Of a stretch of 64,000 nucleotides of DNA, positions 1,985 to 31,260 are shown piece by piece. Source of the DNA: Escherichia coli (lineage in GTDB: Bacteria; Pseudomonadota; Gammaproteobacteria; Enterobacterales; Enterobacteriaceae); NCBI RefSeq assembly GCF_044324785.1, contig NZ_CP172127.1; one strand, given 5' to 3'. How positions within the stretch are numbered: position 1 is the stretch's first letter; every line of letters starts with the position of its first letter. A model generated the notes under the pieces. It saw only the letters and a program-made list of their open reading frames with translations, did no database searches and had not been told where the DNA came from. Made by a program: the position numbers and the translations under genes.

Positions 1985-2218
1985 TTACATTTTACCATTT
2001 AAATTTTGGTTGTCTTTAAGAACTGATATCGCTGTTTGTAATAATTCTTTGTTATCCAGCCATGATTTTTTCTTTATGTTTCCTTCAATGTAATCAAGCA
2101 ATGTTCTGGTATTGATAGGTCTTCCCTGTTTTGCTACTTCCACTACAGCATCCCCTAGGATAATTCTTACTTCAGGAAGCTGCGCAGGGAACCACTTTAG
2201 GGTGTCTTTTGATTTCAT
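1985..2218 (-). CDS. ydfK: Small prophage protein YdfK/YnaE-like (cold-shock induced)
   Basis: ORF 1985-2251; likely start at the internal Met (MKSKDTLKWFPAQLPEVRIILGDAVVEVAKQG...), about 77 aa. Sits next to the pin gene as in Qin/Rac. Confidence 0.6.
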   Translation of the reverse strand: MKSKDTLKWFPAQLPEVRIILGDAVVEVAKQGRPINTRTLLDYIEGNIKKKSWLDNKELLQTAISVLKDNQNLNGKM

Positions 2219-3003: not shown

Positions 3004-4287
3004 ATGGATTTCCAGTTATATTCGCTCGGCGCAGCGTTAGTGTTTCATGAAATATTTTTTCCTGAATCATCAACGGCAATGGCGTTAATTCTGGCAATGG
3101 GAACCTACGGTGCAGGTTATGTGGCACGTATTGTCGGAGCATTTATTTTCGGCAAAATGGGCGACAGAATCGGGCGTAAAAAAGTGCTCTTTATTACCAT
3201 CACCATGATGGGGATCTGTACCACCTTAATTGGTGTGCTGCCGACCTATGCACAAATTGGTGTGTTTGCGCCAATTTTGCTGGTGACGCTGCGTATTATT
3301 CAGGGGCTGGGGGCAGGCGCGGAAATTTCCGGTGCCGGCACGATGCTGGCGGAATATGCACCAAAAGGTAAGCGCGGAATTATCTCCTCATTTGTTGCTA
3401 TGGGGACTAACTGCGGAACCTTGAGCGCAACGGCAATCTGGGCCTTTATGTTCTTCATTCTCAGTAAAGAGGAACTGCTGGCGTGGGGATGGCGTATACC
3501 GTTCCTGGCGAGCGTTGTCGTGATGGTCTTTGCTATCTGGTTGCGTATGAATCTGAAAGAAAGCCCGGTCTTTGAGAAGGTTAACGACAGCAACCAACCG
3601 ACAGCAAAACCTGCACCTGCTGGTAGCATGTTCCAGAGCAAATCCTTCTGGCTGGCAACAGGGCTGCGTTTTGGTCAGGCGGGTAACTCAGGTTTAATTC
3701 AGACTTTCCTTGCAGGCTATTTAGTGCAGACGTTATTGTTTAACAAAGCAATTCCAACAGATGCATTGATGATCAGTTCGATTCTCGGCTTTATGACCAT
3801 TCCGTTCCTTGGTTGGTTATCCGATAAAATTGGTCGCCGGATCCCGTATATTATTATGAATACCTCCGCGATTGTGCTGGCATGGCCAATGCTTTCTATC
3901 ATCGTAGATAAAAGCTATGCCCCGAGCACCATTATGGTTGCACTGATTGTGATTCATAACTGTGCGGTGCTGGGATTATTTGCTCTGGAAAACATTACCA
4001 TGGCAGAAATGTTCGGCTGTAAAAACCGCTTTACCCGGATGGCTATTTCTAAAGAAATTGGTGGTCTTATCGCTTCCGGTTTTGGTCCTATCCTGGCGGG
4101 TATTTTCTGCACCATGACGGAATCCTGGTATCCGATCGCCATTATGATCATGGCATATTCAGTGATTGGTTTAATCTCTGCGCTGAAAATGCCAGAGGTG
4201 AAAGACCGTGATTTAAGTGCGCTGGAAGACGCTGCGGAAGATCAACCGCGTGTTGTAAGAGCTGCGCAACCTTCCAGAAGTCTGTAA
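3004..4287 (+). pseudogene. ydfJ: MFS metabolite:H+ symporter YdfJ, apparently 5'-truncated at the prophage junction
   Basis: 427-aa ORF with 12-TM MFS character. It opens directly in a conserved helix (DFQLYSLGAALVFHEIFFP) with an in-frame TGA two codons upstream and no signal or N-terminal segment, consistent with prophage insertion into the 5' end. Confidence 0.55.
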
Positions 4288-9956: not shown

Positions 9957-9967
9957 ACACCACCAAT

Positions 9968-9997
9968 GGCTGGCCTGGAGAAATCGCCAGGCCAGCC
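9968..9997. terminator. Perfect hairpin between dcp and the CinA-like remnant (possible bidirectional terminator)
   Basis: ggctggcctgg-agaaatcg-ccaggccagcc inverted repeat; no strong T-run on either side, so strength is uncertain. Confidence 0.4.
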
Positions 9998-10000
9998 TGG

Positions 10001-10099
10001 TTAGAGTAGTAATTGCAGCAGCTGGGCGAGGGCAAACCTCACCGCTAATGCTAATACCGTTTCGCAGTCGCCAGCAAAATTACTTTTTTTGTATACCCT
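10001..10099 (-). pseudogene. ydeJ: CinA-like (competence/damage-inducible C-terminal domain) ORF remnant, possibly a truncated ydeJ
   Basis: Minus-strand frame ending ...SNFAGDCETVLALAVRFALAQLLQLLL*, which resembles CinA-family C-termini. No start codon and no conserved CinA N-terminal motif within the roughly 320 bp available before ydeI. Confidence 0.3.
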
Positions 10100-10320
10100 T
10101 CCGTTATAATAATTTTCAAATTTATAAATCTGATTGTTCTGAAATATGTTTAAGACTCTTTAATCTTCTTCTTACTTTAGTGAGTAAAATTCTCTGAATA
10201 TTTGACAGTTAGTTGCCTGATTTTAAATGCCTTATAACAATTGGCAGTATTCTTATTTGTCAATTATAAAAATAGCAACCAGACTTAATAAGTCAAACCA
10301 AACGCAATTAAGGAGTCAGT

Positions 10321-10713
10321 ATGAAATTTCAGGCCATTGTATTAGCAAGTTTTCTTGTCATGCCTTATGCGTTGGCAGATGACCAGGGCGGATTAAAACA
10401 GGATGCAGCGCCACCGCCGCCTCATGCAATAGAAGATGGCTATCGTGGAACCGATGATGCAAAAAAAATGACCGTTGATTTCGCAAAAACCATGCACGAT
10501 GGCGCTTCGGTTTCACTACGCGGTAATTTGATTTCTCACAAAGGAGAAGACCGTTACGTTTTTCGCGATAAGAGCGGAGAAATTAATGTTGTTATTCCTG
10601 CGGCGGTCTTTGATGGACGAGAAGTTCAGCCGGACCAGATGATCAACATTAGCGGTAGTCTGGATAAGAAAAGCGCGCCGGCCGTCGTTCGGGTCACTCA
10701 TTTGCAGAAATAA
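10321..10713 (+). CDS. ydeI: Periplasmic OB-fold (BOF/YgiW family) stress protein
   Basis: 130-aa ORF with a signal peptide [19 protein letters not shown] and a BOF-family C-terminal region. Confidence 0.8.
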
Positions 10714-10967
10714 AAATAAATTAGCCTGATGGCCTGAACTACTGGGCCATTAGGGTATTGGGTTATGCTATTTGTCATCCTTTTATTTACGATAATGCAG
10801 AGGTAATTTACAGAATTAAACACTTTATTATCCGCTGATTTTGTTTTAAATCACAATGTTATCTCAGAGATGACTCATAACTTCGGATTTCTATGAAAAT
10901 ATTGACGTAATTTTGCTTTTCTCTCGTTAGAATAGCGCGCACAAGGAACTGTGAAAAAGGAGTTGCA

Positions 10968-11858
10968 ATGATCAAGAAGACAACGGAAATTGATGCCATC
11001 TTGTTAAATCTCAATAAGGCTATCGATGCCCACTACCAGTGGCTGGTAAGTATGTTTCACAGCGTAGTCGCGAGAGATGCCAGTAAGCCAGAAATAACGG
11101 ATAACCATTCTTATGGACTGTGCCAGTTTGGTCGGTGGATTGATCATCTGGGGCCACTCGATAACGATGAATTACCTTACGTTCGGCTAATGGATTCTGC
11201 CCATCAACATATGCATAACTGTGGTCGGGAATTAATGTTGGCTATTATTGAAAATCACTGGCAGGACGCGCATTTCGACGCCTTTCAGGAAGGGTTGCTT
11301 TCTTTTACTGCGGCATTAACCGATTACAAAATTTATTTGCTGACGATCCGTAGCAATATGGATGTTTTGACGGGATTGCCGGGTCGTCGGGTTCTTGATG
11401 AATCCTTTGATCATCAGTTACGCAACGCTGAGCCTCTGAATCTTTATTTAATGTTGTTGGATATTGACCGATTTAAATTGGTTAATGATACCTACGGGCA
11501 TTTAATCGGCGATGTAGTATTACGCACCCTGGCAACTTACTTAGCCAGTTGGACGCGCGATTACGAAACGGTTTATCGCTACGGTGGCGAAGAATTTATC
11601 ATTATTGTCAAAGCGGCTAATGATGAAGAAGCATGTCGTGCAGGTATCAGAATTTGCCAGTTAGTCGATAACCATGCCATCACACATTCTGAAGGGCATA
11701 TCAACATTACCGTGACTGCAGGTGTGAGTCGCGCATTTCCTGAAGAGCCTCTGGATGTGGTCATTGGAAGAGCGGACCGGGCAATGTATGAGGGTAAGCA
11801 AACCGGAAGAAATCGCTGTATGTTTATTGACGAACAAAATGTGATTAACCGAGTTTAA
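10968..11858 (+). CDS. dgcZ: Zinc-regulated diguanylate cyclase (CZB + GGDEF)
   Basis: 296-aa ORF MIKKTTEIDAILLNLNKAIDAHYQWL...; CZB zinc-binding domain and a GGEEF active-site motif (YRYGGEEFIIIV). Confidence 0.9.
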   Translation: MIKKTTEIDAILLNLNKAIDAHYQWLVSMFHSVVARDASKPEITDNHSYGLCQFGRWIDHLGPLDNDELPYVRLMDSAHQHMHNCGRELMLAIIENHWQDAHFDAFQEGLLSFTAALTDYKIYLLTIRSNMDVLTGLPGRRVLDESFDHQLRNAEPLNLYLMLLDIDRFKLVNDTYGHLIGDVVLRTLATYLASWTRDYETVYRYGGEEFIIIVKAANDEEACRAGIRICQLVDNHAITHSEGHINITVTAGVSRAFPEEPLDVVIGRADRAMYEGKQTGRNRCMFIDEQNVINRV

Positions 11859-11902
11859 GCTCCGTTTAACATTCATTGAGAAAACTGATGCTACTGTGTC
11901 AA

Positions 11903-12001
11903 CGATCCGTTATCAGTGCAGGAAAATGCCTGTTAGCGTAAAAGCAAAACACAAATCTATCCATGCAAGCATTCACCGCCGGTTTACTGGCGGTTTTTTT
12001 T
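11903..12001 (+). ncRNA. mgrR: Candidate small RNA in the dgcZ-mgtS intergenic region (position expected for MgrR); boundaries approximate
   Basis: Non-coding stretch ending in a strong intrinsic terminator (caccgccgg-ttta-ctggcggt followed by T8 at 11993-12001). Location divergent from mgtS matches the known mgrR locus. The 5' end is not determined. Confidence 0.45.
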
Positions 12002-12007
12002 CGCCGT

Positions 12008-12049
12008 CATAAAAATCAGGCCCCTTGTACACAACTGTAACAAGGGGCC
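12008..12049 (-). terminator. Terminator hairpin for mgtS
   Basis: ggccccttgtacacaactgtaacaaggggcc hairpin with a flanking A-run on the + strand (T-run for the minus transcript). Confidence 0.5.
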
Positions 12050-12076
12050 GGTTAGGTGAGGGATTATCTCCGTTCA

Positions 12077-12172
12077 TTAGTCATCCCATTTGTGGCTGAA
12101 ATACGCGGCCAGAAAACCAGAAAATAAAATTATTCCCAGTACGGCCATAAAAACATTCATATTACCCAGCAT
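12077..12172 (-). CDS. mgtS: Small inner-membrane protein MgtS (YneM), 31 aa
   Basis: Hand translation of the minus strand gives MLGNMNVFMAVLGIILFSGFLAAYFSHKWDD*. It is below the ORF-track size cutoff; single TM helix. Confidence 0.8.
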   Translation of the reverse strand: MLGNMNVFMAVLGIILFSGFLAAYFSHKWDD

Positions 12173-12298
12173 TATTTGCCTCCGTTTATGGTGTGGTGTG
12201 TTTCCTCGCTTACCTTAATTTTCATCTCAATGAGAAAGATATTAGCAGAGGTAACCTAAACGAAGGCTGAATTAAATTTTTATTGTGTTCGACTTAAA

Positions 12299-13486
12299 TC
12301 AACAAAGCGCGGGCTGCCCCCACGGTCTTGCACGAATTCCTTTTAACATCAGCACCCACGCAGCAATGATCACCAACGCTAAGATGATAAACAGCGAGGA
12401 AGGCGGCAGGTTGGTTAGCACTATGCCACTCACTAATGGGTTAATCGCCGCACCAAGCCAGCCTAAAGACTGAGCGGAAAAATAGCTGGCTTTCATTCCT
12501 GGCGGCGCAATATGGTCAATCAACATATACTCGCCCGGCGCATAAATGATTTCACCGACAGTAAATACCGCAGCTGACATACCCCACAATAGCAGGCTGT
12601 TGCCGGAAAAAATAAAACCGACCAGACCGATGACGAAACAGAGGGTGCCTGCTGTCATCAGCGTGCGGATGTTAGCCGGGTTAAGTCGCCGGCCCACGGA
12701 ATATTGCAACGTAACCACCATGGCAGCATTCACCGGAAGAACAACCGCGACCACCTTTTCGGCAAAATCCCCATCAGCAATCACCATCACATATTGTGAA
12801 ATGCATGAAGCAAATGCGCCGCTAACAAAAGAAGCCAGAAAGCCAGAGCAGGTAAACCACAACAGTGCTTTATCTTGTAATAAAACTTTCGGCGACCAGG
12901 CACTGGCTGTTTCCGTGGCGATGATTTTCTCGCTGCGCTTTACCCAAATTTGAATGAAAAGCATGGGAAACGCGGAACAGATAGCTGCCAGCCAAAAGGG
13001 CAGATTGATGCTCTGCATCACCAACAGCGTGCCGAGCGGCGGACCGATGGTCCAGCCAATGTTTAGCATGGTGTAGTTGATTGAGAAGATTTTCGTTTTG
13101 CTGGTGGAGGAAAGATTGTCGGCAAACCAGGCTTTCAACACGGTAGCAAAAACGGAATAGGCGCAGTTAATAAGGGCAAAAAAGAGTACCACCAGCGTCA
13201 CGTTATTCACTAAAGGAATGGCAATAAAACCGCTGGCGAAGGCGGTAATTGCCAGTAACATATAGCGTTTCTTGTCGAACTTATCCGCCAGGATACCAAA
13301 ACCGAGGCTAAAAACGACGCCAATAGTGAGCGCAATTGTCATCGCATAACCGATTAGATCGACACTCAGGCTGTACTGGCGACTCAAGTAAATGGTCATA
13401 AACGGCAGCGTAGCGCCGCGTCCGATGGTTAATAACAACGACGAGGCAAGAAGGGCGCTGGTAGAGCGTCGTAGGGATAAGTTCAT
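12299..13486 (-). CDS. ydeE: MFS efflux transporter
   Basis: 395-aa ORF, 12 predicted TM segments, MFS-type. Confidence 0.8.
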   Translation of the reverse strand: MNLSLRRSTSALLASSLLLTIGRGATLPFMTIYLSRQYSLSVDLIGYAMTIALTIGVVFSLGFGILADKFDKKRYMLLAITAFASGFIAIPLVNNVTLVVLFFALINCAYSVFATVLKAWFADNLSSTSKTKIFSINYTMLNIGWTIGPPLGTLLVMQSINLPFWLAAICSAFPMLFIQIWVKRSEKIIATETASAWSPKVLLQDKALLWFTCSGFLASFVSGAFASCISQYVMVIADGDFAEKVVAVVLPVNAAMVVTLQYSVGRRLNPANIRTLMTAGTLCFVIGLVGFIFSGNSLLLWGMSAAVFTVGEIIYAPGEYMLIDHIAPPGMKASYFSAQSLGWLGAAINPLVSGIVLTNLPPSSLFIILALVIIAAWVLMLKGIRARPWGQPALC

Positions 13487-13680
13487 TTGTCTGTCCGGCA
13501 GTGCGTTTCGTTATGTTTTGTTTTAGAGATGTAAAGAAATAGCATGGCAAAAATCCGAAGTATAGCGACTTATTTGCGCTTTAATGCCGTCGTAATCGGC
13601 GACTAACGAATCAACTGTTAAAGAAAAGTAAATTCAGCTAAGTTGATTGCTTACAAAAGATGAAATTCAGAGGCGGTAGA

Positions 13681-14580
13681 ATGTCGCGAAAAGATGGGGT
13701 GTTGGCGCTACTGGTAGTGGTCGTATGGGGGCTGAATTTTGTGGTCATCAAAGTGGGACTTCATAACATGCCACCGCTGATGCTGGCCGGTTTGCGCTTT
13801 ATGCTGGTCGCTTTTCCGGCCATCTTTTTTGTCGCACGACCGAAAGTACCACTGAATTTGCTGCTGGGGTATGGATTAACCATCAGTTTTGCGCAGTTTG
13901 CCTTTCTGTTTTGCGCCATTAACTTTGGTATGCCTGCTGGACTGGCCTCGCTGGTGTTACAGGCACAGGCGTTTTTTACTATCGTACTTGGCGCATTTAC
14001 TTTCGGTGAGCGGCTGCATGGCAAACAATTGGCGGGGATTGCCTTAGCGATTTTTGGCGTACTGGTGTTAATCGAAGATAGTCTGAATGGTCAGCATGTG
14101 GCGATGCTCGGCTTTATGTTGACCCTGGCGGCAGCATTTAATTGGGCGTGTGGCAACATCTTCAATAAAAAGATCATGTCGCACTCAACGCGTCCGGCGG
14201 TGATGTCGCTGGTAATCTGGAGCGCATTAATCCCAATCATTCCCTTCTTTGTTGCCTCGCTGATTCTCGATGGTTCCGCAACCATGATTCACAGTCTGGT
14301 CACTATCGATATGACCACCATCTTGTCTCTGATGTATCTGGCGTTTGTGGCGACAATTGTTGGTTATGGGATCTGGGGGACGTTACTGGGACGCTATGAA
14401 ACCTGGCGGGTTGCACCGTTATCGTTACTGGTGCCCGTAGTAGGACTGGCAAGTGCGGCACTATTGCTGGATGAACGCTTAACGGGTCTGCAATTTTTCG
14501 GTGCGGTGCTCATTATGACCGGGCTGTATATCAATGTATTTGGCTTGCGGTGGCGTAAAGCGGTAAAGGTGGGAAGTTAA
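13681..14580 (+). CDS. eamA: Cysteine/O-acetylserine exporter (DMT superfamily)
   Basis: 299 aa from MSRKDGVLALLVVVVWGLNFVVIKVGL; two EamA-domain repeats. Confidence 0.85.
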   Translation: MSRKDGVLALLVVVVWGLNFVVIKVGLHNMPPLMLAGLRFMLVAFPAIFFVARPKVPLNLLLGYGLTISFAQFAFLFCAINFGMPAGLASLVLQAQAFFTIVLGAFTFGERLHGKQLAGIALAIFGVLVLIEDSLNGQHVAMLGFMLTLAAAFNWACGNIFNKKIMSHSTRPAVMSLVIWSALIPIIPFFVASLILDGSATMIHSLVTIDMTTILSLMYLAFVATIVGYGIWGTLLGRYETWRVAPLSLLVPVVGLASAALLLDERLTGLQFFGAVLIMTGLYINVFGLRWRKAVKVGS

Positions 14581-14610
14581 TAAGCCCCGAGATGTCGGGG
14601 CCAGAACAAA

Positions 14611-14829
14611 CTACATAGCGTGTTGATTATAATAGGGCACGCCGAGCGCATCCGACTTATCACTGCCAGTACCCATGTGATTTAAATCAAACGGTGGTTG
14701 TTCCTGCGATGGGGGAACAACCACGACATTGGCACAGGAAGTAACAACCGGCTGCGTGGTTTGTTCCGCAATGCCCTGCGTGGAAAAGAGAATAAGCGCA
14801 GCTGCTATTGCGGATAAAAGTGGTTTCAT
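14611..14829 (-). CDS. marB: Periplasmic protein MarB
   Basis: 72-aa ORF MKPLLSAIAAALILFSTQGIAEQTT..., immediately downstream of marA. Confidence 0.85.
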   Translation of the reverse strand: MKPLLSAIAAALILFSTQGIAEQTTQPVVTSCANVVVVPPSQEQPPFDLNHMGTGSDKSDALGVPYYNQHAM

Positions 14830-14860
14830 GATTGCCTCAGTGACGTTGTCACGTTATCAA

Positions 14861-15244
14861 CTAGCTGTTGTAATGATTTAATGGATGTAAAAAGCGCGAT
14901 TCGCCCTGCATATTGGTCATCCGGTATTTATGCGGCGGAACATCAAAGTAATTTTTGAAGGTTCGGGTCAGAGTTTGTTGCGACTCGAAGCCATATCGTT
15001 CTGCCAGATAGAGTATCGGCTCGTTACTTTCCTTCAGCTTTTGCGCGATTTCCGTCATCTTACGGCTGCGGATGTATTGGCCTAATGAATGACCGGTTTC
15101 TTTTTTAAACATCCGTTGCAGGTGCCATTTGGAGTAACCCGAACGCTCTGACACTTTCTCCAGTGACAGTGGCGATTCCAGGTTGTCCTCGATCCAGTCC
15201 AAAATGCTATGAATGGTAATAGCGTCAGTATTGCGTCTGGACAT
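14861..15244 (-). CDS. marA: AraC/XylS-family activator MarA
   Basis: [51 protein letters not shown]...; 127 aa with the double HTH. Confidence 0.9.
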
Positions 15245-15264
15245 CGTCATACCTCTTTTTTTGT

Positions 15265-15699
15265 TTACGGCAGGACTTTCTTAAGCAAATGCTCAAGTGT
15301 TGCCACTTCGTCCGCCGTCAGGTTTTTTGTTAATTCTTGGTGCAGGTCCTGGCCAACTAATTGATGGCATTGTTCACATATTGCCGCGCCGCTGGTGGTA
15401 AGTTTTACCAGTACGCCGCGCTTATCATTCGGGTTCGGCAACCTTTCCACCCAGCCTTTACAGACCAGGCGATCCAGCATACGGGTCAGTGCTCCCAGGT
15501 CGACCGACAATACCTTTTTCAGTTCAACCGGAGTAATACACGCCGCGCAGCGGATAGAGCAGAGCACCTTAAACTGTGCCGCGGTAATATCCAGCGGAGA
15601 CAGATACTCGTTAAGCAGGCGATCTTTCTTCTGATTAACCATATGGATTAAGCGACCCAATGGAATAATTTCATTGAACAGATCGCTGGTACTTTTCAC
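15265..15699 (-). CDS. marR: MarR repressor of the multiple-antibiotic-resistance operon
   Basis: 144-aa winged-helix MarR-family ORF heading the marRAB operon. Confidence 0.9.
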
Positions 15700-15910
15700 A
15701 TTAGTTGCCCTGGCAAGTAATTAGTTGCAGAGGATAATATTGCCCAGGCAAGTATAAGTCAAATGAATGAATTGACCGATGCCACGTTTTGCTAAATCGG
15801 TTCAAGTTTTGGTCAATGCGATGCAAGGTTAGCTAAAGAGTGACACTTTATCCTTGTTTACCCCTTATACTTTTCGCTGATAACCCAGATACACAGGATA
15901 ACAACCACCA
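15700..15910. promoter_or_regulatory. marO: divergent marRAB / marC promoter-operator region
   Basis: 211-bp intergenic region between divergent marR and marC; the known location of MarR operators and the marbox. Individual sites were not mapped here. Confidence 0.6.
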
Positions 15911-16576
15911 ATGTTAGATTTGTTTAAAGCAATTGGCCTGGGGCTGGTGGTGTTACTACCGTTAGCTAACCCATTAACAACTGTCGCGTTATTTCTTGGC
16001 CTGGCAGGCAACATGAACAGTGCCGAACGTAATCGTCAGTCGTTGATGGCCTCGGTGTACGTCTTTGCCATCATGATGGTGGCGTATTACGCCGGGCAAC
16101 TGGTGATGGATACATTTGGCATTTCGATTCCCGGTCTGCGAATTGCAGGCGGCTTAATCGTCGCGTTTATCGGTTTTCGGATGCTCTTTCCGCAACAGAA
16201 AGCAATTGATTCACCGGAAGCGAAAAGCAAGTCGGAAGAGCTGGAAGATGAACCCAGTGCCAATATTGCTTTTGTACCACTGGCAATGCCTAGTACCGCC
16301 GGACCGGGAACCATTGCGATGATTATTAGCTCGGCGTCCACTGTGCGTCAGAGTTCAACCTTCGCTGATTGGGTACTGATGGCTGCGCCGCCGCTGATCT
16401 TTTTCCTGGTGGCGGTTATTTTGTGGGGAAGTCTACGCAGCTCTGGCGCAATTATGCGGCTGGTGGGCAAGGGGGGAATTGAAGCGATCTCCCGCCTGAT
16501 GGGATTCCTGCTGGTATGTATGGGCGTGCAGTTTATTATTAACGGCATCCTGGAAATCATTAAAACGTACCATTAA
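15911..16576 (+). CDS. marC: Inner-membrane protein MarC (UPF0056 family)
   Basis: 221-aa multi-TM ORF divergent from marR. Confidence 0.85.
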
Positions 16577-16598
16577 AAAAGGCCCGAATGGGCCTTTC
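16575..16598. terminator. Bidirectional terminator between marC and ydeA
   Basis: aaaaaaggcccgaatgggcctttc: short GC stem flanked by an A-run and a T-run. Confidence 0.6.
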
Positions 16599-16600
16599 AA

Positions 16601-17791
16601 CTATTGCGTCTGTTCTTCGAGTGTCACTGGCCAGCGGCGAAAAATGATGATTGACCATATTAACGCGGCAAAAGCAGGCACCGCGCCCACATAACCAATC
16701 ATCGACATTGACCAGTGCAGACTGACCTGATTACCTACCAACGCGCCAGCGCCGATTCCAATATTAAATATCCCCGAGAATAGCGCCATCGCGACATCGG
16801 TGGCATCTGGTGCCAGCGCCAGCACTTTAACCTGCATACCAAGCCCGATGATCATCATCGCGATCCCCCAGAAAATACTTAGCACCCCGAGGTGTATTTC
16901 ACTGTTCGCCGCAGGTAGCAGCAGTGCGAGGCACACCAGCAACAGCGCAATCGCCGTACTCACCAACGCAGACGCATACTGATTACCCAGTTTCCCGAAA
17001 ATCACGCTGCCAATAATGCCCGCACCACCGAGTAATAACAGTAATGCCGTGGCAAAGTTGGCGCTGAATCCCGCAATGTTTTGCACAAAAGGCTCGATAT
17101 AGCTGTATGCCGTGTAATGGGCGGTGACAACCACCACAGTTAACAAATAAATGCTCATTAATGCCGGGCGGCGGAACAATAGCGGGAGGCTTTTCAATGA
17201 ACCGGAATGCTCACTGGGCAGCAAGGGAAGTAACTTAATCAGGCACAAAAGGGTAATAAACGCCCCGATACCAATCGCGAAGAAGGTCATTCGCCAGCCA
17301 AAATACTGCCCCACAATGCGCCCGAGAGGTAAACCTAATACCATTGCCAGTGCTGTACCGGTGGCAATTAAACTCAACGCCTGCGCTCGCTTCCCGGCCG
17401 GAGCCATACGGATCGCCAGAGACGCCGTAATCGACCAGAAAATCGCATGTGCAAAAGCCACACCAATGCGACTGATCACCAGAACGGTAAAGCTCCACGA
17501 CAAAAACGACAGTACGTGGCTGGCAATAAACACCACAAACAGGCAGATCAGTAATTTGCGTCGTTCAACCTGGCTGGTCATTAACATAAAAGGCAATGAC
17601 ATTAGCGCCACTACCCATGCATAAATCGTCAACATGATGCCGACCTGAGCGGTTTGCATGTGAAAACTTTGCGCAATGTCAGAGAGCAGGCCAACAGGGA
17701 CAAATTCGGTGGTGTTGAAGATGAAGGCGGCGACTGCCAGCGTAACGACCCGTAGCCACGCCACTTTGCGGGAAACAGTGTTTGTTGTCAT
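16601..17791 (-). CDS. ydeA: MFS sugar efflux transporter (SotB/YdeA)
   Basis: 396-aa MFS ORF. Confidence 0.8.
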
Positions 17792-17940
17792 AACAGATTA
17801 TCGGGTGAGTTGCGAAAAAGTGATGAAATGATCTTAAAACGGTTAATGATGTGAATACAATGCATTTGTGATCTGGATCGCGTTTTCCGTTTCTCTGACG
17901 CTGATTCTGTTCCGCGTCAGAGAGTCGGTAACATCACGGT

Positions 17941-19056
17941 TTAATGACGTTCAGGGAGGTCTGGCGTTTTGGCGGTTGCGGGTATAGGTGATCTGACAGG
18001 GGAGCGAGGCCTGTTTTTCACCAGGTCTTCGTGAGTAACTTTTGGCGGCGTTTCATTTTTTACAAAAAGTTTGAGGGTCCTGCGCGCCATATGTTTGATA
18101 ATTTTATCATCACTTAATGATGCTGGCATCAACACGTCATTCAAATCACTTTCATTGGGATTCATAAATTGGTGATAGTGCAACAACATATTGGCGAAAA
18201 ATAAAAACAAGTCCTGAAAATGTGGAAAATCTTGTTCTGCTAAAAGGGATAAAAAGCAGATACAGACTTCGGGTAGTACATGTTTGTTAGAACCTAATGA
18301 ATCCATCAGACTTTGCAATAAATCCTCTTTTAATTCGCTGTCCTTTATGTCAAGAATGGCGGTGATCAAGTTAGGCTCTTTATTGACGAACCATCTGTGA
18401 ACTTCAGAGTTATTCCATAATCGGGGGAGTATGACAAAATTACCGCGAGAGATAAAATTCAGGACAAGCAAATCAAACTGGCGTAAGTAATCTGCAGCGG
18501 TATGGTGATCCGGAGGCAGGGGTTCAATATGTGGTGTATGCGCTCTTTTGATGGGAACGCCAGGGTTGATCATTGGAAATTGTTCAATAAAATCATTCAG
18601 AAACAGAAAGAGCACACGCTCGACGCCGGTCTGAAATACGCGCCCCATAGTGACAGGCTTTGGGTTGGGAGCGCAAAAAATATTAATTTCTCCATCATGG
18701 CGAAAATTATCTAAATAAATAGGGCTTAAATTTATTACTACCTGAAATTCAATATTTTCTTTGTGTCTTCCATTCTTGACGGGATAAGTGAGTTTAAACT
18801 GAACCTTTTCATTGTATAGCGTGTCGTTACCCCGGAAAGAAGTCCTCTGAATATATGATAAGTTATCAAGGTTATTAAATATCTTTTTTGTGGCTGAGTT
18901 GATGTTTAAAGACGTGCGCCACTCTTCATCACATATTATGGTACTGAGTGCATCAATAAAATCCTTTAAAACTTCTTTTACCTGAGGTGCAATATTACGT
19001 ACGGGAAAATCATCAGGAAGAGATATGTAATTGCTGATGCTTACTGGCGTAACCAT
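17941..19056 (-). CDS. yneK: Uncharacterised protein YneK
   Basis: 371-aa ORF with no recognisable catalytic motif; visibly AT-rich compared with its neighbours. Confidence 0.7.
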   Translation of the reverse strand: MVTPVSISNYISLPDDFPVRNIAPQVKEVLKDFIDALSTIICDEEWRTSLNINSATKKIFNNLDNLSYIQRTSFRGNDTLYNEKVQFKLTYPVKNGRHKENIEFQVVINLSPIYLDNFRHDGEINIFCAPNPKPVTMGRVFQTGVERVLFLFLNDFIEQFPMINPGVPIKRAHTPHIEPLPPDHHTAADYLRQFDLLVLNFISRGNFVILPRLWNNSEVHRWFVNKEPNLITAILDIKDSELKEDLLQSLMDSLGSNKHVLPEVCICFLSLLAEQDFPHFQDLFLFFANMLLHYHQFMNPNESDLNDVLMPASLSDDKIIKHMARRTLKLFVKNETPPKVTHEDLVKNRPRSPVRSPIPATAKTPDLPERH

Positions 19057-19139
19057 ATTTGCCCCATATAGTCATAAGTCATCGGAGCATCACTATATAG
19101 AGCATATTAGCCGCAAGAACTATCAAAAATAGCTCATTG

Positions 19140-20015
19140 CTAACTCTGTTTTGCCGAGTCAGACACATCCAGTAGTTGAATAAATGCCTCAAGCGGACGC
19201 GTTTTCGCACCGCGACGCCAGACCAGCCAGGTTGTTAACCAACGCCATTGCTCAGCTAACGGCCACGCTTCAACCTGGTGATGCCCCGGCATACTTTCCA
19301 GCATAGAGCGTGGAATAAGCGCAATGCCTGCTCCTGCGACCACACAGGCCAACATCCCGTGATACGACTCCATCTCGTGAATAGTTCCCGGAGCGGCACC
19401 GTCAGCATGAAACCAGCTCTCGAAGTGGCGACGATACGAACAATTGGCGCGGAAGGCATAAATGTTACTGCCATTAACCTGACTGGCACGGGTTACTGGC
19501 GCATGTCCTTGTGGCGTGACAATCATCAGCTCCTCGCGGTACACCGGTATCCCGTCAATGGCAGTATGGTTAATGGGCCCATCAATAAACGCCGCATTCA
19601 GTTTTCCCTCCAGCACCCCTTCCAGCATAGTGCCGGAAGGGCCGGTGGAAAGTGAAAACTGAATTTTGGGATAACGACGGTTAAATTCCGCCAGCGTGGC
19701 CGGAATGCGCACTGCAGCGGTGCTTTCCAGCGAACCAAGAGAAAATAAACCTTGCGGCTCATCGCCAGCGACAACGCTCCGCGCTTCATCCACTAACGCG
19801 AGAATTTGTTGGCTATAGCGTAAAAAGTTATGCCCGGCAGGCGAGAGACGTAAACGCTGATTCTCGCGAATAAACAGATCAACCCCCAGTTCTGTTTCCA
19901 GCTGGCGTAGACGGGTAGTGAGATTCGACGGCACGCGATGCACTTTTGCTGCAGCCTGGGTTATGCTGCCAGCTTCGGCAACCGCGTTGAACATCTCCAG
20001 TTGGGTCAGATCCAT
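19140..20015 (-). CDS. yneJ: LysR-family transcriptional regulator
   Basis: 291-aa ORF with an N-terminal LysR HTH ([40 protein letters not shown]); divergent from sad. Confidence 0.8.
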
Positions 20016-20115
20016 AATATTCTCGATTCGTGAATAAGTGGCTTAATATTATTCATTTTAAAGCAAGAGTAAATCTGCGTATCTTCATACAATGACTCAT
20101 AAAGGAGATACCCCG

Positions 20116-21504
20116 ATGACCATTACTCCGGAAACTCATGCAATTTCGATAAATCCTGCCACCGGTGAACAACTTTCTGTGCTGCCGTGGGCTGGCGCTG
20201 ACGATATCGAAAACGCACTACAGCTGGCGGCAGCTGGCTTTCGCGACTGGCGCGAGACAAATATAGATTATCGTGCTGAAAAACTGCGTGATATCGGTAA
20301 GGCTCTGCGTGTCCGTAGCGAAGAAATGGCGCAAATGATCACCCGTGAAATGGGCAAACCAATCAACCAGGCGCGCGCTGAAGTGGCGAAATCGGCGAAT
20401 TTGTGTGACTGGTATGCAGAACATGGTCCGGCAATGCTGAAGGCGGAACCTACGCTGGTGGAAAATCAGCAGGCAGTTATTGAGTATCGACCGTTGGGGA
20501 CAATTCTGGCGATTATGCCGTGGAATTTTCCGTTATGGCAGGTGATGCGTGGCGCGGTTCCCATCATTCTTGCTGGTAACGGCTACTTACTTAAACATGC
20601 GCCGAATGTGATGGGCTGTGCACAGCTCATTGCCCAGGTGTTTAAAGATGCGGGTATCCCACAAGGCGTATATGGCTGGCTGAATGCCGACAACGACGGC
20701 GTCAGTCAGATGATTAAAGACTCGCGCATTGCTGCTGTCACGGTGACCGGAAGTGTTCGTGCGGGAGCGGCTATTGGCGCACAGGCTGGAGCGGCACTGA
20801 AAAAATGCGTACTGGAACTGGGCGGTTCGGATCCATTTATTGTGCTTAACGATGCCGATCTGGAACTGGCGGTTAAAGCGGCGGTAGCCGGACGTTTTCA
20901 GAATACCGGACAGGTTTGTGCAGCGGCAAAACGCTTTATCATCGAAGAGGGAATTGCTTCGGCATTTACCGAACGTTTTGTGGCAGCTGCGGCAGCCTTG
21001 AAAATGGGCGATCCCCGTGACGAAGAGAACACTCTCGGACCAATGGCTCGTTTTGATTTACGTGATGAGCTGCATCATCAGGTGGAGAAAACTCTGGCGC
21101 AGGGTGCGCGTTTGTTACTGGGCGGGGAAAAGATGGCAGGGGCAGGTAACTACTATTCGCCGACGGTTCTGGCGAATGTTACCCCAGAAATGACTGCGTT
21201 TCGGGAAGAAATGTTTGGCCCCGTTGCGGCAATCACCATTGCGAAAGATGCAGAACATGCACTGGAACTGGCTAATAATAGCGAGTTCGGCCTTTCAGCG
21301 ACCATTTTCACCACCGACGAAACACGGGCCAGACAGATGGCGGCACGTCTGGAATGCGGTGGGGTGTTTATCAATGGTTATTGTGCCAGCGACGCGCGAG
21401 TGGCCTTTGGTGGCGTGAAAAAGAGTGGCTTTGGTCGTGAGCTTTCCCATTTCGGCTTACACGAATTCTGTAATATCCAGACGGTGTGGAAAGACCGGAT
21501 CTGA
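20116..21504 (+). CDS. sad: NAD+-dependent succinate-semialdehyde dehydrogenase
   Basis: Aldehyde dehydrogenase family with catalytic Cys and Glu motifs; start taken at [11 protein letters not shown] (462 aa). Confidence 0.85.
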
Positions 21505-21567
21505 CGCGACATATTCAGCTCTGATATACTCGCAGGTCTTTTCAGACCTGCGGTCCAGGAGTAGAAA

Positions 21568-22494
21568 GTGGCAGTCGCCATGGATAATGCAATTTTAGAA
21601 AACATCTTGCGGCAAGTGCGGCCGCTCATTGGTCAGGGTAAAGTCGCGGATTATATTCCGGCGCTGGCTACGGTAGACGGTTCCCGGCTGGGCATTGCTA
21701 TCTGTACCGTTGACGGACAGCTTTTTCAGGCCGGAGACGCACAAGAACGTTTTTCCATTCAGTCTATTTCCAAAGTGCTGAGTCTCGTTGTCGCCATGCG
21801 TCATTACTCCGAAGAGGAAATCTGGCAACGCGTCGGCAAAGATCCGTCTGGATCACCGTTCAATTCTTTAGTGCAACTGGAAATGGAGCAGGGTATTCCG
21901 CGTAATCCGTTTATTAATGCCGGTGCGCTGGTGGTCTGCGATATGTTGCAAGGGCGATTAAGCGCTCCTCGGCAACGTATGCTGGAAGTCGTGCGCGGCT
22001 TAAGCGGTGTGTCTGATATTTCATACGATACGGTGGTAGCGCGTTCCGAATTTGAACATTCCGCGCGAAATGCGGCTATCGCCTGGCTGATGAAGTCGTT
22101 TGGCAATTTCCATCATGATGTGACAACCGTTCTGCAAAACTACTTTCATTACTGCGCTCTGAAAATGAGCTGTATAGAGCTGGCCCGGACGTTTGTCTTT
22201 CTGGCTAATCAGGGGAAAGCTATTCATATTGATGAACCTGTGGTGACGCCAATGCAGGCGCGGCAAATTAACGCGCTGATGGCGACCAGTGGTATGTACC
22301 AGAACGCGGGGGAGTTTGCCTGGCGGGTGGGACTACCAGCGAAATCTGGCGTTGGTGGCGGTATTGTGGCGATTGTTCCGCATGAAATGGCCATCGCAGT
22401 CTGGAGTCCGGAACTGGATGATGCAGGTAACTCGCTCGCGGGTATCGCCGTCCTTGAACAATTGACGAAACAGTTAGGGCGTTCGGTTTATTAA
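21568..22494 (+). CDS. glsB: Glutaminase 2
   Basis: 308-aa glutaminase-family ORF (serine-dependent beta-lactamase-like fold). Confidence 0.85.
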
Positions 22495-22853
22495 TGCAGT
22501 CTCTCGATCCACTCTTCGCGCGTTTATCCCGTTCAAAATTTCGCTCTCGCTTTCGTTTGGGCATGAAAGAGCGTCAGTATTGTCTGGAGAAAGGCGCGCC
22601 AGTCATCGAACAACATGCGGCGGATTTTGTCGCTAAACGTCTTGCTCCGGCATTACCGGCTAATGACGGTAAGCAAACCCCCATGCGCGGGCATCCGGTG
22701 TTTATCGCTCAGCACGCCACCGCGACCTGCTGTCGCGGTTGTCTGGCTAAGTGGCATAACATTCCGCAGGGTGTTTCGTTAAGCGAGCAACAACAACGTT
22801 ATATCGTGGCGGTAATCTATCACTGGCTGGTTATACAGATGAATCAGCCATGA
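22494..22853 (+). CDS. yneG: Conserved protein YneG (DUF4186)
   Basis: 119-aa ORF whose ATG overlaps the glsB stop (TAATG), suggesting translational coupling. Confidence 0.7.
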   Translation: MQSLDPLFARLSRSKFRSRFRLGMKERQYCLEKGAPVIEQHAADFVAKRLAPALPANDGKQTPMRGHPVFIAQHATATCCRGCLAKWHNIPQGVSLSEQQQRYIVAVIYHWLVIQMNQP

Positions 22854-22991
22854 GAATTGCGGAAAACGATAAAATAGCATTCCCAGGGTATCTTTATTTG
22901 CCGCCGCTGTCAGCGAACATGCTATCCTTTATGAGAATTTACTTATTACGTTGAGATAATTGCCACCCGCAATTGTATGGACAGATAATTA

Positions 22992-24410
22992 ATGCATGTA
23001 CACCCCATTTCAACTTTCCGTGTGTTCCAGGAAGGTCATCTGCTACGTAATAGCATCGCTATTTTTGCGCTAACCACGCTGTTCTATTTTATTGGTGCAG
23101 AGTTACGGCTGGTTCACGAACTTTCTCTTTTCTGGCCGCTGAATGGCGTAATGGCGGGGGTGTTTGCGCGCTATGTCTGGCTTAATCGACTGCATTACTA
23201 TGCGATCAGTTATGTGGCGATGCTGGTTTATGATGCCATAACCACCGAATGGGGACTGGTTTCACTGGCTATCAATTTCTCCAATATGATGTTTATTGTT
23301 ACCGTCGCCTTACTGGTCGTGCGGGATAAGCGTCTGGGGAAAAATAAGTATGAGCCAGTAAGTGCCTTACGGCTATTTAATTACTGTCTGATTGCCGCAT
23401 TATTATGCGCTATTGTCGGGGCGATTGGTTCGGTCAGTATTGATAGTCTGGATTTCTGGCCTTTGCTTGCCGACTGGTTCAGTGAGCAATTCTCAACGGG
23501 CGTGTTGATCGTGCCTTGTATGCTGACATTGGCAATTCCTGGAGTGCTGCCGCGCTTTAAAGCAGAACAGATGATGCCCGCTATCGCGCTTATTGTGTCG
23601 GTTATTGCCTCGGTAGTCATTGGCGGAGCGGGGAGTCTGGCGTTCCCGCTGCCTGCATTAATCTGGTGTGCAGTGCGCTATACGCCGCAGGTAACATGTC
23701 TGTTGACCTTTGTTACCGGTGCGGTGGAAATCGTACTGGTGGCAAATTCGGTGATTGATATCTCGGTCGGTTCGCCGTTCTCCATTCCGGAAATGTTCTC
23801 CGCACGTCTCGGTATTGCTACGATGGCGATATGCCCAATTATGGTTTCTTTTAGCGTGGCAGCGATCAATTCGCTAATGAAGCAAGTTGCGCTGCGAGCC
23901 GACTTTGATTTTCTGACTCAGGTTTACTCACGGTCCGGTCTTTATGAGGCGCTGAAAAGTCCATCGCTGAAACAGACACAACATCTGACTGTCATGCTGC
24001 TTGATATCGACTATTTCAAAAGCATTAACGATAACTATGGACATGAATGTGGCGATAAAGTGTTAAGCGTGTTTGCCCAGCATATTCAGAAGATTGTCGG
24101 TGATAAGGGGCTGGTGGCGCGAATGGGCGGCGAAGAATTTGCTGTTGCAGTGCCATCAGTGAATCCTGTCGATGGTCTGCTAATGGCGGAAAAAATCCGT
24201 AAAGGCGTTGAACTGCAACCGTTCACCTGGCAACAAAAAACGCTTTATCTCACGGTAAGTATTGGCGTCGGTAGTGGTTGCGCATCGTACCGAACGCTGA
24301 CCGATGACTTTAATAAATTGATGGTCGAAGCTGATACGTGTCTGTATCGCTCGAAGAAAGATGGGCGCAACCGTACCAGCACTATGCGTTACGGTGAGGA
24401 AGTTGTCTGA
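22992..24410 (+). CDS. dgcF: Membrane-anchored diguanylate cyclase (GGDEF)
   Basis: 472-aa ORF with an N-terminal multi-TM sensor region and a C-terminal GGDEF domain (RMGGEEFAVAV). The true start may be an internal codon. Confidence 0.75.
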   Translation: MHVHPISTFRVFQEGHLLRNSIAIFALTTLFYFIGAELRLVHELSLFWPLNGVMAGVFARYVWLNRLHYYAISYVAMLVYDAITTEWGLVSLAINFSNMMFIVTVALLVVRDKRLGKNKYEPVSALRLFNYCLIAALLCAIVGAIGSVSIDSLDFWPLLADWFSEQFSTGVLIVPCMLTLAIPGVLPRFKAEQMMPAIALIVSVIASVVIGGAGSLAFPLPALIWCAVRYTPQVTCLLTFVTGAVEIVLVANSVIDISVGSPFSIPEMFSARLGIATMAICPIMVSFSVAAINSLMKQVALRADFDFLTQVYSRSGLYEALKSPSLKQTQHLTVMLLDIDYFKSINDNYGHECGDKVLSVFAQHIQKIVGDKGLVARMGGEEFAVAVPSVNPVDGLLMAEKIRKGVELQPFTWQQKTLYLTVSIGVGSGCASYRTLTDDFNKLMVEADTCLYRSKKDGRNRTSTMRYGEEVV

Positions 24411-24636
24411 CATCTTTATTCATTCTGCGCGATTTAAATGCAATGTGTTCTACCACTTTATGATCGAAGAAAAGGCGTATTTCCTCGATTAAACCATGAT
24501 CCGCGCCACACTTTTCTCATAAAACTGCTCATTAATCATCAGGAGTTGATCAAAACAGGGGTTCGGCGTATTAAAGTTTGCTAACCTGTCGTACCAATTC
24601 AAACAGGTTGTATGACTAATCAGAAGGGAACCCATT

Positions 24637-26088
24637 GTGAAAACACTAAAACGTCGCGATTTTCCCGGTGCACAGTATCCAGAACGTATCATTCAGTTTG
24701 GTGAAGGTAACTTCCTGCGCGCCTTTGTTGACTGGCAAATTGATCTCCTGAATGAGCACACCGATCTGAATTCTGGCGTGGTCGTTGTTCGTCCGATTGA
24801 AACTTCATTCCCGCCGTCACTGAGCACGCAGGATGGTCTGTACACCACCATTATCCGTGGTCTGAACGAGAAGGGGGAAGCGGTCAGCGACGCGCGTCTG
24901 ATTCGCTCGGTTAATCGTGAAATCAGCGTCTACAGTGAATACGATGAATTCCTGAAACTGGCGCACAACCCGGAAATGCGCTTTGTTTTCTCTAACACCA
25001 CCGAAGCGGGTATCAGCTACCATGCGGGCGATAAATTCGATGACGCGCCAGCGGTAAGTTATCCGGCAAAACTGACACGTCTGCTTTTCGAGCGTTTTAG
25101 CCATTTCAACGGTGCGCTGGATAAAGGTTGGATCATCATCCCGTGTGAGTTGATCGACTACAATGGCGACGCGTTGCGTGAACTGGTGCTGCGCTATGCG
25201 CAAGAGTGGGCACTGCCAGAAGCATTTATTCAATGGCTGGATCAGGCTAACAGCTTCTGTTCTACGCTGGTGGACCGTATCGTTACCGGTTATCCGCGCG
25301 ATGAAGTGGCTAAACTGGAAGAAGAACTGGGTTATCACGATGGTTTCCTCGACACCGCTGAACACTTTTACCTGTTTGTGATTCAGGGGCCGAAATCCTT
25401 AGCGACTGAACTGCGTCTGGACAAATATCCGCTCAACGTGCTGATTGTTGACGATATTAAACCGTATAAAGAACGCAAAGTGGCAATACTCAACGGTGCG
25501 CACACCGCGCTGGTGCCGGTAGCGTTCCAGGCAGGGCTGGATACCGTAGGTGAAGCGATGAACGATGCTGAAATTTGCGCATTCGTTGAAAAAGCCATCT
25601 ACGAAGAAATTATTCCGGTACTGGATTTGCCACGCGATGAGCTGGAGTCTTTCGCCAGTGCAGTCACCGGACGTTTCCGTAACCCGTACATCAAGCATCA
25701 GCTGCTGTCTATCGCGCTCAACGGTATGACCAAGTTCCGCACCCGTATCCTGCCGCAGCTGCTGGCAGGGCAGAAGGCAAACGGCACACTTCCGGCGCGC
25801 CTTACTTTCGCATTAGCGGCATTGATTGCGTTTTATCGCGGTGAGCGTAACGGAGAAACATATCCGGTACAGGACGATGCACACTGGCTGGAACGTTATC
25901 AGCAACTCTGGAGCCAGCATCGTGACCGTGTTATCGGCACCCAGGAACTGGTAGCGATTGTTTTGGCAGAAAAAGACCACTGGGAGCAGGACCTGACGCA
26001 AGTGCCTGGACTGGTCGAGCAGGTTGCTAAGGACCTGGATGCGATTCTCGAAAAAGGAATGCGCGAAGCTGTACGCCCGTTGTGCTAA
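24637..26088 (+). CDS. uxaB: Altronate oxidoreductase (tagaturonate reductase)
   Basis: 483-aa mannitol-dehydrogenase-family ORF with a GTG start ([30 protein letters not shown]). Confidence 0.85.
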
Positions 26089-26284: not shown

Positions 26285-27199
26285 ATGATTGTTCGTCCAC
26301 AACAACACTGGCTGCGCCGTATTTTTGTCTGGCATGGCTCAGTATTATCCAAGATATCCTCGCGCTTACTACTCAATTTTCTCTTTTCTATCGCTGTTAT
26401 TTTCATGCTGCCCTGGTACACGCATCTGGGCATCAAATTCACCCTCGCACCGTTCAGCATTCTCGGTGTCGCCATCGCCATTTTTCTTGGTTTTCGTAAT
26501 AATGCCGGGTACGCCCGTTACGTTGAAGCGCGAAAACTTTGGGGGCAGTTGATGATTGCCTCACGGTCGTTACTGCGGGAGGTAAAAACGACATTGCCGG
26601 ATTCGGCAAGTGTAAAGGAGTTTGCCCGGCTGCAAATCGCCTTCGCTCACTGTTTACGCATGACATTACGCAAACAGCCACAGGCGGAAGTGCTGGCACA
26701 TTATCTCAAGACTGAAGATCTTCAGCGTGTACTGGCTTCGAACTCTCCAGCTAACCGTATCTTGTTAATAATGGGAGAATGGTTGGCGGTTCAGCGCCGC
26801 AATGGACAGCTTTCAGATATCCTGTTTATTAGCTTCAACGATCGGCTTAACGATATTTCAGCGGTTCTGGCAGGCTGCGAGCGCATTGCCTATACGCCAA
26901 TTCCCTTTGCCTACACCCTGATTTTGCATCGTACCGTTTATCTGTTTTGTATCATGCTGCCGTTCGCGCTGGTCGTGGATCTGCATTACATGACGCCTTT
27001 TATCTCTGTGCTGATTTCCTACACTTTTATTTCGCTGGATTGTCTGGCGGAAGAACTGGAAGATCCCTTCGGTACTGAAAACAATGATTTACCGCTGGAT
27101 GCTATCTGCAACGCTATTGAAATTGACCTGTTACAGATGAACGATGAAGCAGAAATTCCGGCAAAAATTCTTCCCGATCGTCATTACCAGCTGACGTAA
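26285..27199 (+). CDS. yneE: Bestrophin-family (UPF0187) membrane protein
   Basis: 304 aa from the internal Met MIVRPQQHW...; bestrophin-like TM topology. Confidence 0.75.
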   Translation: MIVRPQQHWLRRIFVWHGSVLSKISSRLLLNFLFSIAVIFMLPWYTHLGIKFTLAPFSILGVAIAIFLGFRNNAGYARYVEARKLWGQLMIASRSLLREVKTTLPDSASVKEFARLQIAFAHCLRMTLRKQPQAEVLAHYLKTEDLQRVLASNSPANRILLIMGEWLAVQRRNGQLSDILFISFNDRLNDISAVLAGCERIAYTPIPFAYTLILHRTVYLFCIMLPFALVVDLHYMTPFISVLISYTFISLDCLAEELEDPFGTENNDLPLDAICNAIEIDLLQMNDEAEIPAKILPDRHYQLT

Positions 27200-30267: not shown

Positions 30268-31260
30268 TTATGGCAATGGGTTATTGGCCCGACGCGCCAG
30301 CCACTCTCTAATTTGCTGGCGATGCAGGCTAACGGAACGACCTACGACAACGACGATAAGTAGCGCACCGGAAAGGGCGCTGGACACCTGATTTGGCACT
30401 CCTGCCATTTGCAAACCTTGTTGCAAATATCCCACTAATAAAACCGCAATGGCGGTGCCGATAATGGAACCAGAACCACCATAAATATTGGCGCCGCCGA
30501 GGACTACGGCGGTGATGGCGGGCATCAGAAACGACGCACCGAGATCGGAACGTGCTGAACCAAAATACGATACCAGCAGCACAGCGGCGACCGCAGACGC
30601 CAGCCCCGTCATGGCATAGAGCGCACACAAGGTGCGGTTAACTGGAATCGCGCTATAAACCGCCACGCGCGGGCTTTGCCCAATCAAAAACACATTACGT
30701 CCGGCATGGGTTTTATGCAGCCAGAGCCAGAAAACGAGGAGACATATCAGGAAGATAATCAGCGGAACGGGGAGTCCCAGCACATCCAGGTTAGCGAAAT
30801 CTGTAAACGCCATCGGGAATCCACCAATACCTTCGTACCCCGTCGCTCCGGCCATACCGGAAAGCAGCAGAGCGCTTCCGGCAAACAGATACAGCGTGCC
30901 AAGCGTAATCACCAGCGGGTTAACTTTGGTATAGATAATTAATCCGGCGTTGATCAGCCCGCACAATGCGCCGAGCAGTAAGGTCAGGAGTATCGCCAGC
31001 GGCATCGGCACACCACTTTGAAACAGTACGCCCAATGCAATGGCGCAGAGGCCGATGGTCGAACCAAACGAAATATCGATCCCGCCACTGACAATCACCA
31101 TCGTCAGCGGTAGGGCGACAATGCCAATGCAGATAAAGTCACTGGTGCTGAACAGCAACATATTGAGATCTAACATCCGCGGGTTAATTGCACCAAATGC
31201 AACAATCTCAATAACGAGCAGTGCGGCAAGAGCCAGTTCCCAACCGTAGCGAATACGCAT
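30268..31260 (-). CDS. lsrD: LsrD, AI-2 ABC transporter permease
   Basis: 330-aa ribose-type ABC permease. Confidence 0.85.

Follow-up and report, generated by a model that had tools for sequence, protein, structure and literature searches.

Two intact diguanylate cyclase genes, dgcZ and dgcF, in an ordinary region of the Escherichia coli chromosome

The genes dgcZ (ydeH) and dgcF (yneF), which encode predicted synthases of cyclic di-GMP (c-di-GMP), delimit a segment of 13,443 bases in the Escherichia coli DNA analyzed here, a stretch of 64,000 nucleotides that we refer to as the window. This segment, the span, begins at the ATG of dgcZ at position 10968 and ends at the stop codon of dgcF at position 24410. 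Based on the analyses reported here, we have hardly any doubt that the span is ordinary, vertically inherited E. coli chromosome that carries two independent, anciently diverged diguanylate cyclase genes.

The cyclase genes and their catalytic domains

Both dgcZ and dgcF are intact, each reading frame running uninterrupted from an ATG to its stop codon (Table 1). In DgcZ, Pfam places residues 22-89 in the CZB family (PF13682; 31.0 bits against a cut-off of 29.4) and residues 130-283 in the GGDEF family (E 7.8e-45, 153 bits against a cut-off of 23.8), and the active site (A-site) GGEEF is at residues 206-210. The entire protein belongs to the NCBIfam equivalog NF007380 (520 bits against a cut-off of 256, covering 1-296 of 296) and matches PDB 4H54, the K-12 enzyme, at E 1.6e-202. 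In DgcF, a multi-pass membrane domain is followed by a GGDEF domain at residues 303-461 (E 4.5e-41, 140.7 bits against the cut-off of 23.8) with the GGEEF A-site at residues 379-383. DgcF also carries D338, D340, K343, N346, D355, R377, K455 and R459, each of which is at least 90% conserved across 74 family members. An earlier sequence-only reading of this DNA had described dgcZ as CZB plus GGDEF and dgcF as membrane sensor plus GGDEF, with GGEEF retained in both; the domain assignments bear out this description, alignment revealed no loss of the motif, and all gene names that were given from the raw sequence turned out to be correct.

DgcZ differs from the crystallised K-12 DgcZ (YdeH; PDB 4H54/3TVK/3T9O) by two conservative substitutions only, V94I and V227I, and its GGDEF domain is that of PDB 3TVK apart from V227I. 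The two proteins share the length of 296 residues, the CZB and GGDEF domains, the zinc-ligand residues, GGEEF, RDYE at the I-site position and the genomic place beside mgrR and mgtS; the 4H54 crystal construct carries A at position 52, where the protein here has C52. The K-12 enzyme has been crystallised with its product, and YdeH/DgcZ serves elsewhere as a positive-control cyclase.

H22, C52, H79 and H83, the zinc ligands in the numbering of Zähringer et al. 2013, are all present in DgcZ. According to that study, DgcZ is reportedly a constitutive dimer held via the CZB domain, in which zinc bound by these residues keeps the GGDEF domains of the dimer locked in an unproductive arrangement. Release of zinc would allow the GGEEF sites to meet and to condense two GTP into c-di-GMP. 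Of these features, the sequence here shows the four ligand residues and the A-site, along with the near-identity to the crystallised enzyme. The dgcZ leader (10940-10967) contains two GGA motifs, AAGGAA and AAGGAG, the latter at the ribosome-binding site; these are presumably sites of the kind bound by CsrA, which represses ydeH.

The inhibitory site (I-site), which the sequence-only reading had singled out for inspection, was located by the convention RxxD, five residues, then GG(D/E)EF. DgcZ reads RDYE-TVYRY-GGEEF, i.e. the I-site position is R197-D-Y-E200 with R kept and D replaced by E, while DgcF reads GDKG-LVARM-GGEEF, and HMMER places the RSSD of WspR opposite a gap and a G of DgcF. Motif inspection thus finds the canonical RxxD I-site in neither DgcZ nor DgcF, and neither classes as a product-inhibited cyclase; DgcZ has a conservative RxxE variant, and DgcF is without an I-site. 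The same I-site residues are tabulated for both enzymes in Spurbeck 2012 (Table 1 therein), and Richter 2014 (PMC4287979) agrees for YneF. Because neither enzyme has a canonical I-site, their output would probably be limited by expression and by the input signal (zinc in the case of DgcZ) rather than by feedback.

The dgcF gene in the window is the full-length allele. K-12 lacks a segment of 498 bp that, by alignment, comprises codons 1-144 of dgcF and the 65 bp that precede its ATG; in K-12, dgcF (b1522) is annotated as 315 residues, which correspond to residues 158-472 of DgcF here, and the gene is not expressed. This deletion, the ensuing misannotation of the start codon and the absence of expression in K-12 have been published (PMC4287979; PMC5635695). 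Because 4196 (77%) of the 5426 complete E. coli genomes keep the 498-bp segment, dgcF of the window is the common, intact form. Likewise, the full-size DgcF (YneF) proteins of enteroaggregative E. coli (EAEC) O104:H4/55989, enterohaemorrhagic E. coli (EHEC) O157:H7 and Shigella flexneri have 472 residues with a membrane domain and a GGDEF domain, an intact A-site and no I-site, and their genes lie downstream of sad-glsB-yneG. There is no material difference between DgcF here and the full-size protein described previously (Richter 2014; Sarenko 2017; Ojha 2024). DgcF is 99-100% identical to widespread E. coli clusters, its exact allele is found on 289 public contigs, and the exact DgcZ and DgcF proteins each occur on ~290 E. 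coli contigs. Full-size YneF is weakly expressed, mainly in an RpoS-dependent manner, and has been described as having an "intact A-site but no I-site" (PMC4287979, Richter 2014). The Shigella DgcF ortholog raises c-di-GMP, and its GG to AA mutant does not (PMC11327459). Some E. coli encode proteins (P0008, P0009) in which a DgcF membrane domain, 97% identical and covered in full, is joined to a HipA C-terminal domain; loss of ~20 kb between the co-oriented genes dgcF and hipA presumably gave rise to these fusions.

Could one of the two proteins be a degenerate, non-catalytic GGDEF protein that functions as a c-di-GMP receptor or scaffold? E. coli has such proteins, e.g. CdgI (PMC5635695), and the weak expression of DgcF (PMC4287979) as well as the lack of the canonical RxxD in both proteins would fit this idea. 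However, GGEEF and all of the conserved catalytic residues are retained in both proteins. DgcZ is practically the same protein as an enzyme that was crystallised with its product and is used as a positive control, and c-di-GMP is produced in vivo by the DgcF ortholog of Shigella (PMC11327459). We therefore consider it extremely improbable that either protein is degenerate, and favor that both are diguanylate cyclases.

Conservation of the span and proximity of the two genes

Megablast of the span against the 5426 complete E. coli genomes finds a match in 5424 of them, and in 5303 genomes a single location holds 80% or more of the span; the suggestion of the sequence-only reading that the region is likely ordinary is upheld. 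Identity is 95-99% throughout, with strain N3 as the best match (99.0%). The gene order is that of strain N3 and of K-12, in which the equivalent region is at ~1.611-1.624 Mb in reversed orientation. After the RefSeq annotation of N3, 1190 and K-12 MG1655 had been carried onto the window by blastn, 14 unrelated protein genes and one small RNA (sRNA) gene were counted between dgcZ and dgcF. The reading frames of all annotated protein genes of the span are complete from start to stop codon and uninterrupted, and the annotation compared (N3, K-12) contains no mobile-element genes inside the span. None of the complete genomes exceeds 99.0% identity over the span, single genes are 97.6% to 100% identical to the best strain, and the first 3.1 kb of the window are 100% identical to several strains; this pattern suggests a recombinant mosaic background.

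Two cyclase genes in close proximity could also have arisen by local duplication, or the span could have been transferred horizontally as an island. The average G+C content of E. coli is ~51%, and the dips below it, to 39-44% around ydeI-dgcZ and to 39% at yneK, would agree with such an origin, as would the location of dgcZ and dgcF on the same strand. By contrast, the GGDEF domains of DgcZ and DgcF are 31% identical over 180 residues, on which ground recent duplication was rejected, and the scores of DgcF against WspR and PleD are no lower than that against DgcZ. Moreover, the input domains are unrelated (CZB versus the membrane domain that we relate to MASE1 below), nearly every E. coli genome contains the span, no mobile-element genes lie in it, and a sister-paralog tree or flanking integrase, tRNA or direct-repeat signatures were not seen. 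In addition, part of the synteny (ptrR-sad-glsB-dgcF-uxaB-yneE) extends to a 71%-identical enterobacterial DgcF ortholog, whose locus keeps ptrR-sad-glsB-dgcF ... uxaB-yneE. Given the 31% identity, we view DgcZ and DgcF as ancient paralogs with unrelated input domains, and give an origin of the arrangement by local duplication or island transfer next to no credence.

The density of stress and lifestyle regulators that the sequence-only reading saw within about 14 kb holds as a description, but not as something statistically unusual. mar and mgtS/mgrR are within this distance, whereas hipBA and safA-ydeO, close by in a loose sense only, lie elsewhere in the window, beyond the span. In a simulation, genes were placed at random on a 4.64-Mb circle, with gene counts from PMC11327459 and PMC5635695, and trials were scored for at least one adjacent pair no more than 12,024 bp apart, which is how far the starts of dgcZ and dgcF lie from each other here. 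Such a pair arose by chance in 29% of the trials with 12 cyclase genes, in 60% with 19 GGDEF genes and in 89% with 29 GGDEF/EAL genes. Clustering of the two cyclase genes beyond chance was rejected based on this simulation.

These numbers bear on the idea that selection maintains the span as a stress and lifestyle island, in which the cyclases, mar and mgtS/mgrR, and further outward hipBA and safA-ydeO, are kept together for joint action or regulation. In line with this idea, marR, marA, ptrR, mgrR, mgtS and the two cyclase genes all lie in 13.4 kb, and in Shigella dgcF affects acid resistance (PMC11327459), with acid-response genes being present on the same stretch (glsB in the span, safA-ydeO further along). 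However, the proximity of the two cyclase genes is what random placement would often give, and dgcZ and dgcF are in separate transcription units. Also, the genes lie on both strands and answer to different regulators, i.e. PhoQP for mgtS/mgtT, RpoS for dgcF and vegetative control for dgcZ (PMC5635695); the neighbours of distant DgcF homologs are unrelated; and hipBA and safA-ydeO are 18 kb and 30 kb away, respectively. A selected island is, therefore, very unlikely in our view. In the reading that we prefer, that of ordinary chromosome with two independent cyclase genes, the mar and mgtS/mgrR loci are each under their own regulators (MarR/MarA and PhoQP, respectively), and the two cyclase genes do not form a functional unit.

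The membrane domain of DgcF

A hydropathy scan and an AlphaFold2 (AF2) model predict that the membrane domain of DgcF comprises ~10 helices within residues ~17-300, and in the model the last helix (residues 265-304) is a continuous linker that runs straight into the GGDEF domain. Residues 1-306 match no Pfam or NCBIfam family, with no MASE1 hit even at E<=10, and a PDB profile search with the domain found no relative; the domain has been called unique in E. coli (Richter 2014, PMC4287979). An exhaustive HMMER search returned 415 cluster representatives at E<=0.001, nearly all of which are GGDEF proteins of 460-490 residues, plus two hybrid histidine kinases. In Pfam scans, 50 of 74 relatives of the DgcF domain match MASE1 (PF05231). 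The best of them, P0221, scores 43.3 bits against a cut-off of 29.8 over profile positions 4-297 of 299, and itself matches DgcF at E 7e-18. Using hhalign, the family profile aligns with DgcE residues 1-320 over 216 columns (probability 93.6%, E 2e-7). Nearly invariant positions of the membrane domain are W48, P49, N51, R60, D81, N98, W162, P175, G211-G212, W225 and C226.

Judged from these comparisons, the N-terminal domain of DgcF is a divergent MASE1. Like the MASE1 domains of DgcE, PdeA and PdeF, it occupies the N-terminal ~300 residues, has ~10 helices and precedes GGDEF or histidine-kinase outputs; it differs from MASE1 proteins in that its own sequence falls below MASE1 detection. In Pfiffer 2019, DgcE, PdeA and PdeF are the only E. 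coli c-di-GMP proteins with MASE1, and DgcF is omitted. The signal of DgcE arrives via the RdcA/RdcB GTPase, while DgcF is not known to have a partner, and none emerged from its gene neighbourhoods: because eleven more distant, non-enterobacterial DgcF-family loci were found to have no neighbour in common, no partner gene is indicated. A gene for an ion channel (bestrophin, CLC or MscS) directly adjoins the DgcF-family gene at three of these eleven loci, at a fourth an MscS-like gene is three genes away, and in the E. coli window the bestrophin-family gene yneE is two genes downstream of dgcF. These channels belong to three different families and were grouped after the fact, and the adjacency is a weak lead.

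The predicted structure gives a second view of the domain. In the model, a six-helix bundle of the DgcF domain superposes on solved energy-coupling factor (ECF) S-components. In sequence, the domain is outside the S-component family, with no relative in the PDB profile search and a weak match to ECF-ribofla_trS in one of the 74 relatives (E 0.006). It also differs from S-components in being twice as long and in being fused to a cyclase, whereas S-components dock to an ECF module, and the likeness comes from a predicted model and not from a solved structure. A paper that does not mention MASE1 connects 5TMR-LYT sensor kinases with the S-component fold (Partipilo et al. 2024, PMC11109136), and our literature search found no paper linking MASE1 with the ECF S-component fold. 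That the DgcF membrane domain, as a divergent MASE1, has a helix bundle similar to ECF S-components at its core is a tentative proposal, which we regard as possible but doubtful.

Taken together, we suggest that DgcF is a membrane-anchored cyclase in which a single long helix connects a divergent MASE1-type domain of ~300 residues with a GGDEF domain that has all catalytic residues and lacks a product-inhibition site. In this model, a signal in or at the membrane would change the register of the linker helix or dimerisation and, in this way, cyclase activity. Several points weigh against our account of the two proteins. The signal input of DgcF is the inferred part of the proposal. The MASE1 assignment draws on relatives and profile comparison because the direct Pfam scan of the DgcF membrane domain finds nothing. 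The statements on feedback control of DgcZ and DgcF derive from the motif, and cyclase activity in this strain is predicted from sequence, with the evidence for synthesis coming from the literature.

Other features of the window and meaning for E. coli

The sRNA gene mgrR starts 45 nt past the dgcZ stop codon and matches Rfam STnc560 (RF01407) at 11870-12083 (281.9 bits against a gathering threshold of 55); it was the only RNA element in an Rfam scan at E<=1 over 10700-24700. The gene is identical to positions 5-98 of K-12 mgrR (94 of 94 bases) and has an intrinsic terminator (stem 11975-11994 followed by a T run). mgtS-mgtT converges on mgrR and overlaps its 3' end by 29 nt, exactly as in the K-12 annotation; the operon and its PhoQP dependence have been described (PMC11429745). 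The genes of the mar locus are 97.6-100% identical to the annotated genes over their full length, ungapped and without internal stops.

Table 1. Features of the window; positions are counted from its first base
Feature	Position	Strand	Description
Prophage end and adjoining DNA	1-4287		first ~3 kb: end of Qin-like prophage
ydeJ deletion	9957-10320		K-12 bases 1624738-1625211 absent
ydeJ remnant	10001-10081		81 bp of 3' end
dgcZ (ydeH)	10968-11858	+	296 residues; zinc-inhibited diguanylate cyclase; CZB and GGDEF
mgrR	11904-12001	+	PhoP-regulated, Hfq-dependent sRNA
mgtT	11973-12077	-	34 residues; low-Mg2+ small-protein operon
mgtS	12077-12172	-	31 residues; low-Mg2+ small-protein operon
ydeE	12299-13486	-	dipeptide exporter (annotation transfer)
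eamA	13681-14580	+	cysteine/O-acetylserine exporter (annotation transfer)
marB	14611-14829	-	intact
marA	14861-15244	-	intact
marR	15265-15699	-	intact
marC	15911-16576	+	divergent from marRAB; intact
ydeA, yneK, ptrR; sad, glsB, yneG	within 16601-22853	-; +	sugar exporter, protein of unknown function, putrescine-utilisation regulator; succinate-semialdehyde dehydrogenase, glutaminase 2, DUF4186 protein (annotation transfer)
K-12-absent segment	22927-23424	+	498 bp
dgcF (yneF)	22992-24410	+	full-length allele, 472 residues; membrane domain and GGDEF
yneE	26285-27199		bestrophin family
lsrC	31260-32289	-	autoinducer-2 (AI-2) transporter permease; frame shifted
ECSE_1600-family autotransporter	37222-42642	+	intact, 1806 residues
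hipB/hipA	42853-44441		starts 18.4 kb past span end
safA/ydeO	54640-55673		starts 30.2 kb past span end
safA	54640-54837	+	63 residues
yddB	60980-63352	+	TonB-dependent receptor; premature stop

Outside the span, several genes of the window are altered. The prophage end at its beginning (pinQ, tfaQ, ydfK, ynfT; Rfam IS009 at 748-946) is 100% identical to strains such as IAI1 and truncates ydfJ, likewise in K-12. ydeJ, which in K-12 is between dcp and ydeI, is deleted; its remnant is common to N3 and is labelled in RefSeq as a partial '2-oxo-tetronate isomerase'. In lsrC, a G run at gene position ~201 is longer by one G (indel near 32089), which shifts the frame and creates many stops, reflecting either a pseudogene or a homopolymer sequencing error. 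The autotransporter gene lies between lsrK and hipB. In safA, a CAA to TAA change at codon 64 slightly truncates the periplasmic C-terminus (63 residues versus 65), and in yddB, a TGG to TAG change at 61943-61945 (codon 322 of 790) introduces a premature stop compared to strain 1190.

As written, the finding is of small import. Based on its sequence, this strain would have two c-di-GMP synthases and intact mar and mgtS/mgrR loci, like most E. coli, and nothing in the finding goes beyond the established biology of this core region of the E. coli chromosome. For dgcF, K-12 is the odd one out, and strains like the one analyzed here have 13 potentially active cyclases as opposed to 12; results on c-di-GMP input that were obtained in K-12 do not transfer to such strains.

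The sole new item is a lead, i.e. the reclassification and the fold of the DgcF sensor domain. If the S-component-like architecture were true for MASE1 generally, including DgcE, PdeA, PdeF and many kinases, these domains may be receptors that bind a small molecule within the membrane, an idea put forward for the S-component-like pyruvate sensor BtsS, and would not merely be platforms for docking or degradation. The DgcF domain, thus, offers a concrete structural hypothesis for a sensor domain of obscure function.

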